A stretch of 64,000 nucleotides of DNA from Ginglymostoma cirratum (Eukaryota), in contig JAHRHZ010000002.1 in assembly GCA_024137785.1 (NCBI GenBank), positions 18,929,760 to 18,993,759 of the forward strand. Direction: 5' to 3'. The notes beneath the pieces were generated by a model that saw only the letters and a list, made by a program, of their open reading frames with translations, had not been told where the DNA came from and searched no databases. Below are positions 11,821 through 52,600 of this stretch, one piece after another. The first letter of the stretch is position 1; the number at the start of each line of letters is the position of its first letter. A program made the translations under genes and the position numbers.

Positions 11821-12030
11821 AACAACATGTAGAGGTAAATGAACACAGCAGGCCAAGCAGCATCAGAGGAGCAGAAAAGCTGACATTTCGGGCCGAGACC
11901 TTCGTCAGATTTTCTGAAGAAGGGTCTTAGGCCTGAAACGTCAGCTTTCCTGCTCCTCTGATGCTGCTTAGCCTGCTGTGTTCATCCAGCTCTACACCTT
12001 GTTATCTCAGATTCTCCAGCATCCGCAGTT
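11821..12030. mobile_element. Palindromic Penelope-derived mini-element (family B) with back-to-back hammerhead-like cores
   Basis: Arm 11821-11909 is the near reverse complement of 11913-12003. Core on +: CTGAAGA(11914-11920) AGGGTCTTAGGCCT GAAAC GTC. Core on -: CTGACGA AGGTCTCGGCCC GAAAT GTC (11881-11908). Confidence 0.75.
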
Positions 12031-12185
12031 CTTACTGAGTAAGTTAATCTGTTTTTACACTCTCCCCATAGTGCTCACACCTTGGCTGGAACCAAAAGTC
12101 AGATAATTTGCAAACATGCAGATGATTAGTGAGCTTTGTGAATCTGTAAAGGATGTATACAAGCAAGACATCTAGAATTACAATT

Positions 12186-49600: not shown

Positions 49601-52600
49601 CCATTCCCAATGTTTCACCATCTAACTGTGGCCTGTGACACATATTCAGGTTACTGAATGGTCAGTTACAGGCTTACATCTGCAGGATACTCAAGAAACA
49701 AGTACTTTCAATCAGAATAAGGCAACTCGCACATCATCTACAGAGTCCAGGAAACATTGCTTACCTCAGCACTGGTTGCCTCTGCAAAGACATTCAGAGG
49801 TTTGATCCAAGTATCCAGACCGGAGGCTGCTGGAGGAGTCAGGGAGCCTACTGCAAGATTAGTGAGGGAGAATGTTTTACCTTCTTTTTAAAAAAAAGTC
49901 AAGGTTAAAAGTTCAAAGACTCAGTATTAAACAGCAAAATCATACACACCCAAATCACAATTGGTGACTTTTCGACTGCTGTGATGAACATGTGCACCTT
50001 AATAGAACCTTTGCACACAATGAACTTGATCATCACATTGAAAGGTATCTTTAAATGTGGCTGGATGGACTTAGGAACAGAAGCAGACCATTCAGCCTCT
50101 TGAACTTACACTGTCATTCAGTTTGATCATAGCTGACTACCTACCTAAATCGTGACTTTCCTGCACCCTTTTCCATATTGCCTTAATGTCATTCAACTCC
50201 AGCAATCAACATGTGTGTGTCTGGAACCTGCTCAATGACTGAGCTTCATCAGTCCCCTGGGATAGAGAATTCCACAGATTTAGCACCCTTCTTTTCAGTC
50301 TACATGACTTAGCCTTCATTCCAAGGCTATGTTCTATGGTTCATGACTCACCACCCAGGAGAAACAGCTCATCTACATCCAAACAATCACGACTGGGAAG
50401 AATTTTTAAATTTCAACAACATCACCACACATTCTTCGAAACCCTAGAGAATACAGGCACAGTTTCTTCAGTACCTCTTCCTAAGACTGTCCTGTCATCC
50501 CAAAAATTAGTCTGAACGTCTGTTGCACTCCCTCTCTTGCATGTATATCCTTCTTTGGGTAAGACTAAAAAGTGTACACAATACTCCAGGTGAAGTCTAA
50601 TCAAGGCCAACTACCACAGGGCCATAGAGATGTACAGCATGGATGGTTTGGTCCAACTCGTCCATGCCGACCTGCTATCCTAAATTAATCTAGTCTCATT
50701 TGCCAGCATTTGGCCCATATTCCTCTCAATCCCTCCTATTCATATACCCATCAAGATGCTTTTTAAATGTTGTGATTATACCATGCTCCACCACTTCCTC
50801 TGGCAGCTCATTGCGTACACTTTACTTCTGTAAACAAATCCCCTTGTGAATGCAGTCAACACAACACTCTCCTTCCTCAGAGTTGCACCTGCATGCTAGC
50901 TTACAGTGAATTGGGAACAAGGATATCCAGGTTCCTTGGGCACTGGTTTCCCAATCTCTCGACACTGAAGAGGAGAAGAAAAAAAAAAAAAACACACTTA
51001 TTGCATTCCATCTGCCATGTTCTGGTCCATTCACCCAAGTCTGGACAAGTCTGCTCAAAGCCTTGCACATTTCTCAACTTGTTTTCCCAACTAGTTGCGC
51101 AACTAACAAATCTGCAAATGTTATTAAAATGTGTCCCCATATCTAAATCATTTATATTATGAACTGCTACAGCTGTAGCACCAATCCTTGGGTCACAGCC
51201 TGCCGTTCTCAGAACAATCTGCTCATTCTTACTCTGCTGTTAACCAATTTGCAATCCATACAGAATATTATTCCTAATTTAATGCTCTCAAATTTTGTTT
51301 AGAGAATCTCCTGTATAGCGTCTTATCAAGAGTCTACCAAAAATCCACTAACACATACCCACTGATTCTACTTGATCGAGGCTACAAGCATCATTTCCTT
51401 TTAATAAGTCCATGCTAACTCAATTTCACCATTATTTTCTACTGACAAAGTAACAGGTCTGTGGTACTCCATTCTCCCTCTCTTCTTAATAATGGTGTTA
51501 CGATTGTTATTTTCCAGCAATAGGATCCTCTCCGGAATCTTCAGAATTTTGAAGGCATCCACTGTCTCTACAGTCATCTCCTTCAACAAGGCTTATCACG
51601 AAAGGTCTGTCATTTCTGCAGTATCATGCATGGCCCTAAGTTTACAGTCAACTTTTTCATTCATTCACAGGGCGAGGGCGTTGCTGGCTAGGCAGCATTT
51701 ATTGCCCATCCCTAATTGCCCAGGGGGCAGTTAAGGGTCAATCACATTGCTGTGGGTCTGGAGTCACACGTAGGCCAAACCAGGTAAGGATGGCAGATTT
51801 TCTGATGAAGGGTCTAGGCCCGAAACGTTAAGTTTTCCTGCTCGGCCTGCTGTGTTCATCCAGCCCCACGCCTTGTTATCAAGGATGGCAGTTTCCTTCC
51901 CTGATATTAGTGAACCAGATGGGTCTTTTCAATCAACAATGGATTTGCAGTAATCATTAGACTCTCAATTCCAGACATTTATTGAATTCAAATTCCACCA
52001 TCTGCCACGACAGGATTCGAACACAGGTCCCCAGAATGCTATCTGGGTCTCTGATTGGCATTCCAGCAATAATATCACGAGGCCACTGCCTCCCTTTTCT
52101 GTTGTTGTTATTGTTGAAGTGTGACCACTGTTGCAACATAGCAATCACTAATCACTTTTTGATACAGTAAATTGCCAAAAACATCAGTGATGATCACTAA
52201 ATCTGATTTTGGTTCAGTGATAATTATTGGTCGAGACTGGGGAGAAGTTATCAACTCGTATTTAAAAAGTATGTTGGGATCTATCACAATCACCCAGAAC
52301 TGAAGGAGCCTTGGCTCGACCTCTCATCCAAAAGCCAGGGTTCTCAAATTTCTGCATCAGGATTTCAGCCCACAATGTTCTAAATTCAGAGATACCCCAT
52401 TGAGTCAAAACCAGCAACCCAATGTTCTCTGCAAAGTTAATTTTGCAACATCACGTAAGTGTATCACATTTTGATTGGAAAAACCTGATACAGGAACAAC
52501 AGCCAAATTGTTTCTACATGTATTGTTAACCTCTCCTGGACTTACAGGTAGCTGAAAACACAAGGAAAAATTAAAAACCCAAACTATTATTTGTTCTTGC

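Follow-up and report, generated by a model that had tools for sequence, protein, structure and literature searches.

Short hammerhead-bearing elements in Ginglymostoma cirratum are probable insertion products of Penelope-like retrotransposons

Five short elements in two related families

We analysed a stretch of 64,000 nucleotides from Ginglymostoma cirratum (assembly GCA_024137785.1, contig JAHRHZ010000002.1, positions 18,929,760 to 18,993,759 of the forward strand; hereafter the window), in which five short elements carry a hammerhead ribozyme motif and resemble the ends of Penelope-like elements (PLEs). BLAST and profile searches, made within the window and covering eight arms in all, group the elements into family A (A1 at 11.8 kb, A2 at 27.0 kb and A3 at 51.8 kb) and family B (B1 at 20.0 kb and B2 at 45.1 kb). 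An earlier sequence-only reading of this DNA had named five elements in two families, described three of them as inverted repeats with the core at the centre of symmetry, and assigned to a fourth the stub of a second arm. All five elements are present at about those positions. The two families are upheld by the arm identities (89–96% inside A, 75–92% inside B and 59–72% between A and B) and by reciprocal profile matches, with the family A profile recovering B and vice versa (E 6e-8 and 6e-6), indicating that A and B are homologous. A1, B1, and B2 are inverted repeats as described; the B1 core lies off the centre of symmetry, and B2 has a degenerate second core and a first core with a broken stem II. 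The stub is present in A2. The elements and their arms are as follows.

A1, 11820 to about 12036-12039, both strands: head-to-head inverted repeat with a 3-nt loop at 11910-11912
A1 short (left) arm, 11820-11909, sense on the minus strand: core C3 at 11908, without tail
A1 long (right) arm, 11913 to about 12039, sense on the plus strand: core C3 at 11914, tail from 12005
A2, 26943-27081, minus strand: one full arm with tail, core C3 at 27070
A2 inverted stub, 27076-27081: 6 nt behind a 3-nt loop, with 2 further nt common to the stub and the target duplication
A3, 51797-51880, plus strand: single arm without tail, 13-nt internal deletion, core C3 at 51802
B1, 19982-20218, both strands: inverted repeat with a 29-nt spacer
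B1 left arm, sense on the minus strand: tail present, begins within stem II, without core
B1 right arm, sense on the plus strand: core C3 at 20108, without tail
B2, 44991-45240, both strands: older inverted repeat with a 4-nt loop at 45131-45134
B2 left arm, sense on the minus strand: core C3 at 45126, broken stem II, tail present
B2 right arm, sense on the plus strand: degenerate core at 45139, without tail

The two arms of B1 share an 11-nt duplication in stem II and are 92% identical, and either of them is 75–86% identical to B2. The B1 core occurs only on the right arm, within the 29-nt spacer.

Hammerhead motif and predicted folding

The window holds 14 occurrences of the CTGANGA...GAAA layout, and the four with a 5-bp stem II all fall inside the elements, so the layout with a short hairpin reported in the sequence-only reading is real. 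Both boxes (CUGANGA and GAAA-N-N-U-H) are intact in six of the eight arms, being missing from B1 left and degenerate in B2 right. The consensus of the minimal PLE hammerhead consists of helix I, CUGANGAH, helix II closed by G-C, GAAAN, a palindromic pair, NUH, and helix I (PMC4209133 Fig. S3). The elements resemble these minimal type-I hammerheads in the CUGANGA box with one extra base after A9, the G10.1-C11.1 (or G-U) pair, GAAA, the palindromic 15.2-16.2 pair and the short helix I, and the Acropora Neptune row of the same figure shares the bases after GAAA with family A. Helix I measures 4 bp in B1 right, 3 bp in A3, 2 bp in A1 right and A2, and 1 bp in A1 left; the 2–3 bp of family A differ from the hammerheads in PMC4209133, in which Drosophila hammerheads with a 2-bp helix I are also published.

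The published descriptor of minimal hammerheads (helices I and II of 3–7 bp, loop of 3–10 nt; PMC4209133) was re-implemented and run on the window and on 300 dinucleotide shuffles. When stem I was set to at least 3 bp, a single match was found (A3), and 2 of the 300 shuffles gave a match. Setting stem I to at least 2 bp yielded three matches (A1 right, A2, and A3), with one match in each of 4/300 shuffles and none with more, while ignoring stem I yielded four matches against a shuffle mean of 0.12 and a maximum of 2. B1 right passes the descriptor only when its 15-nt loop II is allowed, the loop being this long because of the 11-nt duplication. Only one of the eight arms (A3) lies within the published limits, or two with a longer loop; helix II of 3–7 bp, the loop of 3–10 nt and the extra base after A9 are found together in four arms, with B2 broken. 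The hammerhead motif is real and beyond chance, and the match to consensus and descriptor supports the hammerhead identity (Cervera and de la Pena 2014).

Two tests named beforehand gave no support. The 19 matches of an Rfam scan to E 10 included no hammerhead family, and the scan's sub-threshold microRNA matches reflect the A1 and B1 hairpins. Analysis of stem covariation in nine related rows, a set of low power, revealed 1 of 11 pairs altered on both sides, a count equalled by 370/500 shuffles, and the covariation score was equalled by 383/500. Helix pairing was retained, with 86.8% of 76 cells paired versus 8–43% when the helices were slid, and the changes are mostly compatible with pairing. 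A further copy of the layout at 11094 (CTGAAGA...GAAA, without stem II) is taken as chance; the segments at 11060-11114 and 29903-29956 form a 55-nt inverted pair with 78% identity.

Whole-element folding energies are -140.2 (A1), -153.3 (B1) and -119.6 kcal/mol. Forcing the hammerhead fold in the whole element would cost +38.6 (A1), +41.5 (B1), +20.4 (A2), and +5.5 (A3) kcal/mol, and imposing helices I and II on isolated arms while the core stays free would cost +11.0 (A1) and +7.4 (B1) kcal/mol, all as nearest-neighbour energies, which take no account of tertiary contacts, a dimer helix III or assistance by protein. According to this model, the hairpin buries the core in the inverted copies by about +40 kcal/mol. 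In a head-to-head repeat the antisense arm would be transcribed first on either strand, and therefore no kinetic window would be expected. The proposal that the elements are ribozyme carriers in a functional sense thus fares poorly, since the helices are weak or broken and the core is predicted to be buried; these copies are probably not working ribozymes, with the hammerhead decayed or buried.

Insertion anatomy, related remnants, and neighbourhood

Comparison of the arms revealed that 7/8 begin 1–11 nt upstream of C3, with B1 left beginning within stem II. The 3' ends are bimodal, 32–38 nt apart, and the short ends fall within about 10 alignment columns. Four arms are tailed (A1 right, A2, B1 left, and B2 left), and five stop before the tail (A1 left, A3, B1 right, B2 right, and an end at 49.2 kb belonging to a long insertion described below). 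An inverted second arm is joined head to head at the 5' end in A1, B1, B2, and the long insertion, and as a stub in A2. A tail of 30–40 bp on one end together with an adjacent inverted 5'-truncated copy is a PLE signature (PMC8557442, PMC3846280), and in a PLE of the anole the tail sits between two start sites of the reverse transcriptase (RT; PMC11167929). In family B, a pyrimidine run with CAG lies immediately upstream of the core and a second one precedes a conserved ATGCTGC, both splice-acceptor-like (20097-20107 and 45127-45134); the intron of Drosophila Penelope ends at helix I (PMC4209133).

Candidate target-site duplications flank four of the elements.

A2, 26927-26942 and 27082-27097, plus strand: 16 bp, 15/16 identical, score equalled by 0/300 random flank pairs
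A3, 51786-51796 and 51881-51891, plus strand: 11 bp, score equalled by 1/300 random pairs
B2, 44980-44990 and 45241-45251: 11 bp, score equalled by 5/300 random pairs
B1, 19974-19981 and 20219-20226: 8 bp, score equalled by 21/300 random pairs

A3 was inserted in a dispersed repeat, of which a paralog near 33.78 kb holds the 11-mer once and is free of the 84-nt element, representing an empty site. This repeat is SINE-like (short interspersed nuclear element), with at least three copies (51700-51960, 33605-33890, and 3230-3400).

The junction between the arms is unlike in every copy: A1 has a 3-nt loop, A2 a 3-nt loop followed by a 6-nt stub, A3 a single arm, and B2 a 4-nt loop, and the B1 arms are joined into stem II through microhomology. 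Since all junctions differ, and since the two B1 arms share the 11-nt duplication and are mutually closest, the arms appear to have been copied at each insertion, and the hairpin was most likely built each time rather than moved as a unit. The PLE origin proposed in the sequence-only reading is supported by the one-sided tail, the inverted arm and the duplications, as reported for PLEs (PMC8557442, PMC3846280). Truncated endonuclease-positive (EN+) PLE insertions described in these sources, with the Neptune clade as the closest comparison, likewise have an inverted 5'-truncated copy at the 5' end, a tail of 30–40 bp on one end, duplications of 8–10 bp, palindromes of 18–38 bp at the 5' ends of pseudo-long terminal repeats (pLTRs), and solo pLTRs. 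Unlike them, the whole insertion here is the segment from hammerhead to tail, with 5' ends clustered at the core.

A long decayed insertion of related build and three fragments also lie in the window.

Long insertion, minus arm, 47500-48860, minus strand: endonuclease-like motifs, by eye, near 48717 and at 47750-48020
Untranslated region (UTR) of the minus arm, 47752-47509, minus strand: pyrimidine-rich, ends at a degenerate core
Inverted plus arm, 48870-49216, plus strand: UTR copy at 48870-49115, then an A/B-related end at 49136-49216, without tail
Repeat interrupting the minus arm, about 48025-48690: matches 23530-24062 (E 2.7e-4) and 22417-22668
Fragment of the family B 3' end with tail, 3495-3547, plus strand: 0/500 shuffles
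Fragment of the family A tail, 63608-63655, plus strand: 0/500 shuffles
Weak fragment of the A/B 3' part, 3028-3070, plus strand: profile E 0.012

The two UTR arms are homologous (score 82, equalled by 0/2000 block shuffles; next best 46 among 1240 other windows); 15/2000 random segments equalled the score, and none did once the two arms were excluded. A combined A and B profile recovers a sixth end at 49136-49214 (E 2e-6). Motifs in the minus arm, in an order starting with NTCP and then F-x..., agree by eye with Neptune endonucleases (PMC8557442 Fig. S2), with the YIG and GLN motifs missing; the choice of motifs was ours. No RT motif was found among the short patterns tried, and Pfam searches returned no RT or GIY-YIG domain, either in six frames of 1-4400, 26000-29000 and 46500-49500 (24 translations) or in 139 stop-free stretches (133 of them being all those of at least 72 aa in 4400-55300 outside those regions). 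A phmmer search with the 200-aa frame over 47504-48106 and a word search of 47866-48022 each gave 0 matches, and the Atlas gave no usable match for the endonuclease remnant. When minus-strand 47330-47520 was compared with the element ends, one of four comparisons exceeded the shuffles (2/500) and the other three did not. The link between the long insertion and a PLE open reading frame (ORF) is plausible and goes no further, because the motifs were seen by eye and every database search was negative.

The sequence-only reading had placed decayed PLE coding remnants at 3395, 27100, and 47640. At 27100 there is no Pfam match, and 0/4 comparisons of 27090-27320 with the element ends or UTR exceed the shuffles, so that remnant falls. 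Nothing coding was recovered at 3395, where 3495-3547 is at most a family B 3'-end fragment. The site at 47640 adjoins the endonuclease-like motifs seen by eye; it lies itself in the pyrimidine-rich, UTR-like arm, and the databases are negative. One reading frame, common to A and B, is open from core through tail in A2, A1 left, B1 right, and B1 left. Differences by codon position are 6, 9, and 11 over 24 codons, which is not convincing as coding, and ATG is present in A3 only. Such an open frame would be expected if the segment is the start of the ORF (PMC3846280), and by analogy with other PLEs the segment may represent the first ~40 codons. The label of non-coding elements is therefore doubtful, on this analogy and, weakly, on the shared frame.

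Several further features surround the elements. A Pfam DUF4661 match (E 2.6e-19) lies at 458-874 on the plus strand, in a frame that we take to be C6orf47-like; a 15-bp tandem array at 880-1111 falls in the same frame. On the minus strand, 55489-62694 contains long exons, one of them of 755 aa, that have no Pfam match and are presumably PRRC2A/BAT2-like. Together, the DUF4661 frame and these exons suggest a region like class III of the major histocompatibility complex; the sense strand of A3 would be opposite to the PRRC2A/BAT2-like gene. A short dispersed repeat family at 8126-8268, 12292-12348, and 59758-59850 resembles a cartilaginous-fish SINE, and a minisatellite with a 32-bp unit occupies 3580-4314 (about 19.5 copies). 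Family A sequence also occurs in six predicted eukaryotic proteins (P0001-P0006), three of them fused to host domains (PF01187, PF08337, and PF08687); these are probably gene-prediction artefacts or exonisation, and the Atlas gave no usable match for P0002.

Origin of the elements

That the elements derive from PLEs is very likely, counting together the reading we favour and one that invokes short master copies. Our favoured reading, which we hold to be fairly likely, takes all five elements for short insertions, dead ends produced by Penelope-like retrotransposons that are probably of Neptune type. Each copy would be the 85–130 nt between the hammerhead and the pLTR 3' end, and the hammerhead would be a passenger from the parent element. 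Transcripts of PLEs begin within the pLTR (PMC2377424, PMC8557442), and we prefer to see in the 5' stop the 5' end of the autonomous element's RNA rather than that of short masters; a start at the mRNA's 5' junction would yield such a short product. In the anole element, initiation is internal with the commonest start at 111–118, and the template has to contain the ORF's first 172 nt (PMC11167929). Since this template requires ORF sequence beyond the main start site, copies ending at a start site would be poor templates, if the requirement extends from that clade to this one. The anole element, the Poseidon member PAc of Anolis, resembles the present copies in a hammerhead about 110–130 nt from the outer 3' end, a tail between the two ends and uncleaved RNA as the main substrate (PMC11167929); it differs in clade and sequence, and most of the present copies do not conserve its ATG position. 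Truncated PLEs have been given as the source of minimal hammerheads that occur singly or in opposite-strand pairs (PMC4209133), and the present elements occur in both arrangements, with the paired cores 5–13 nt apart compared with about 100–700 bp in that source.

A more specific form of the favoured reading, put forward tentatively, resembles strong-stop synthesis: the RT would start internally at the 5' pLTR/ORF junction of its own mRNA and run off the 5' end about 120 nt on, just upstream of helix I, after which dual priming or snap-back would form the hairpin. We found no paper stating this.

Several points weigh against the origin as dead-end products. Tight 5' clustering is not predicted by random 5' truncation and fits short masters equally. 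The clustering itself is weakened because A and B are related and may amount to only two independent events, and because the long insertion extends well upstream and three fragments end before reaching the core. A1 has no target-site duplication beyond chance in its flanks, and two of the other duplications (11 bp and 8 bp) exceed chance only moderately. The A1 short arm carries 12/89 private differences versus 3/87 in the long arm, concentrated distally, which arms of the same age do not predict; B1 and B2 have no such asymmetry. The similarity of the B1 arms could equally stem from later gene conversion. What is known of the mechanism was obtained with a Poseidon rather than a Neptune element, and the Neptune assignment derives from motifs judged by eye, in an endonuclease remnant that has no database match. 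A parent element with intact RT and endonuclease ORF was not found in the window, and the folding energies carry the nearest-neighbour limits given above.

The elements might instead be self-propagating non-autonomous PLE families, with short masters transcribed from just upstream of the hammerhead and reverse-transcribed in trans in the fashion of SINEs, which we consider somewhat unlikely. Apart from its retrozyme and MITE labels, this was the central proposal of the sequence-only reading, and short products of an autonomous element would account for such anatomy too. This would account for the start of 7/8 arms at most 11 nt upstream of C3, for the absence from the window of any A or B copy reaching into the UTR, and for the lack of ATG in most family A cores. 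Family A sequence appears in six predicted proteins, in four of which the match begins one codon before the core and the upstream residues differ; these matches may, however, begin at a splice site instead of the element end. Non-autonomous PLE derivatives are known (PMC8557442; bioRxiv 10.64898/2026.07.22.740005), and pLTRs suffice in cis in rotifers (PMC3846280), whereas the anole template requires sequence past the main RT start site (PMC11167929). Also opposed to short masters are the related long insertion of the same build in the window and the lack of promoter evidence.

The sequence-only reading had also called the elements retrozyme- or MITE-like (miniature inverted-repeat transposable element), and neither description holds up. 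MITEs have constant terminal inverted repeats and a constant duplication length. Hairpin units moved whole by a DNA transposase would fit three long inverted repeats with flanking duplications, yet the ends are asymmetric with a one-sided tail, junctions and arm lengths are unlike in every copy, two copies are single-armed, duplications vary from 8 to 16 bp, and there is homology to the UTR-bearing long insertion; a hairpin built at each insertion argues against such units, and we regard them as the least probable origin. Non-LTR retrozymes, which are non-coding and spread through self-cleavage, circularisation and reinsertion, share the type-I hammerhead, the relation to pLTRs and the existence of dispersed monomers (PMC7229834; bioRxiv 10.64898/2026.07.22.740005), and pLTR-derived ones are reported in one chondrichthyan in the latter source. 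They are, however, direct tandem repeats with a hammerhead per unit, whereas the copies here are solo or inverted. All 14 Tandem Repeats Finder rows fall outside the elements, the two cores of a pair are on opposite strands, helices are weak or broken, and 0/8 arms begin at the cleavage site, which together argue against retrozymes as defined in bioRxiv 10.64898/2026.07.22.740005 and make them very improbable. Equally remote is exaptation by the host as RNA hairpins or ribozymes (small-RNA precursors, editing substrates or intronic cleavage): the hairpins are stable over 75–89 bp and the elements lie between host genes or in host introns, but every Rfam microRNA match scores well below its gathering threshold, the arms are decaying (71–93% complementary), and covariation does not exceed shuffles (383/500; two-sided 370/500).

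Literature searches turned up no account of these families from cartilaginous fish, and neither Table S1 nor the 56 rows of Fig. S3 of PMC4209133 include a cartilaginous fish. The families are likely annotated in Repbase/Dfam, and those listed for one cartilaginous fish with bioRxiv 10.64898/2026.07.22.740005 may already include them. A 27-nt stretch of A3 found 0 loci in bacterial and archaeal genomes.

The elements add two related families of hammerhead-bearing PLE ends from a thinly covered lineage, their kind having been described before. The copies keep the core, so the inserted RNA would not have been cleaved, which agrees with what was found in vitro for the anole element. [quoted passage not shown] If the RT does run off the 5' end of its own mRNA, thousands of such copies would preserve a fossil record of where transcription begins, of the two RT start sites and of the stagger of the cut, and would account for the surplus of minimal hammerheads, solo or on opposite strands, in animal genomes as well as for the origin of inverted pLTRs.

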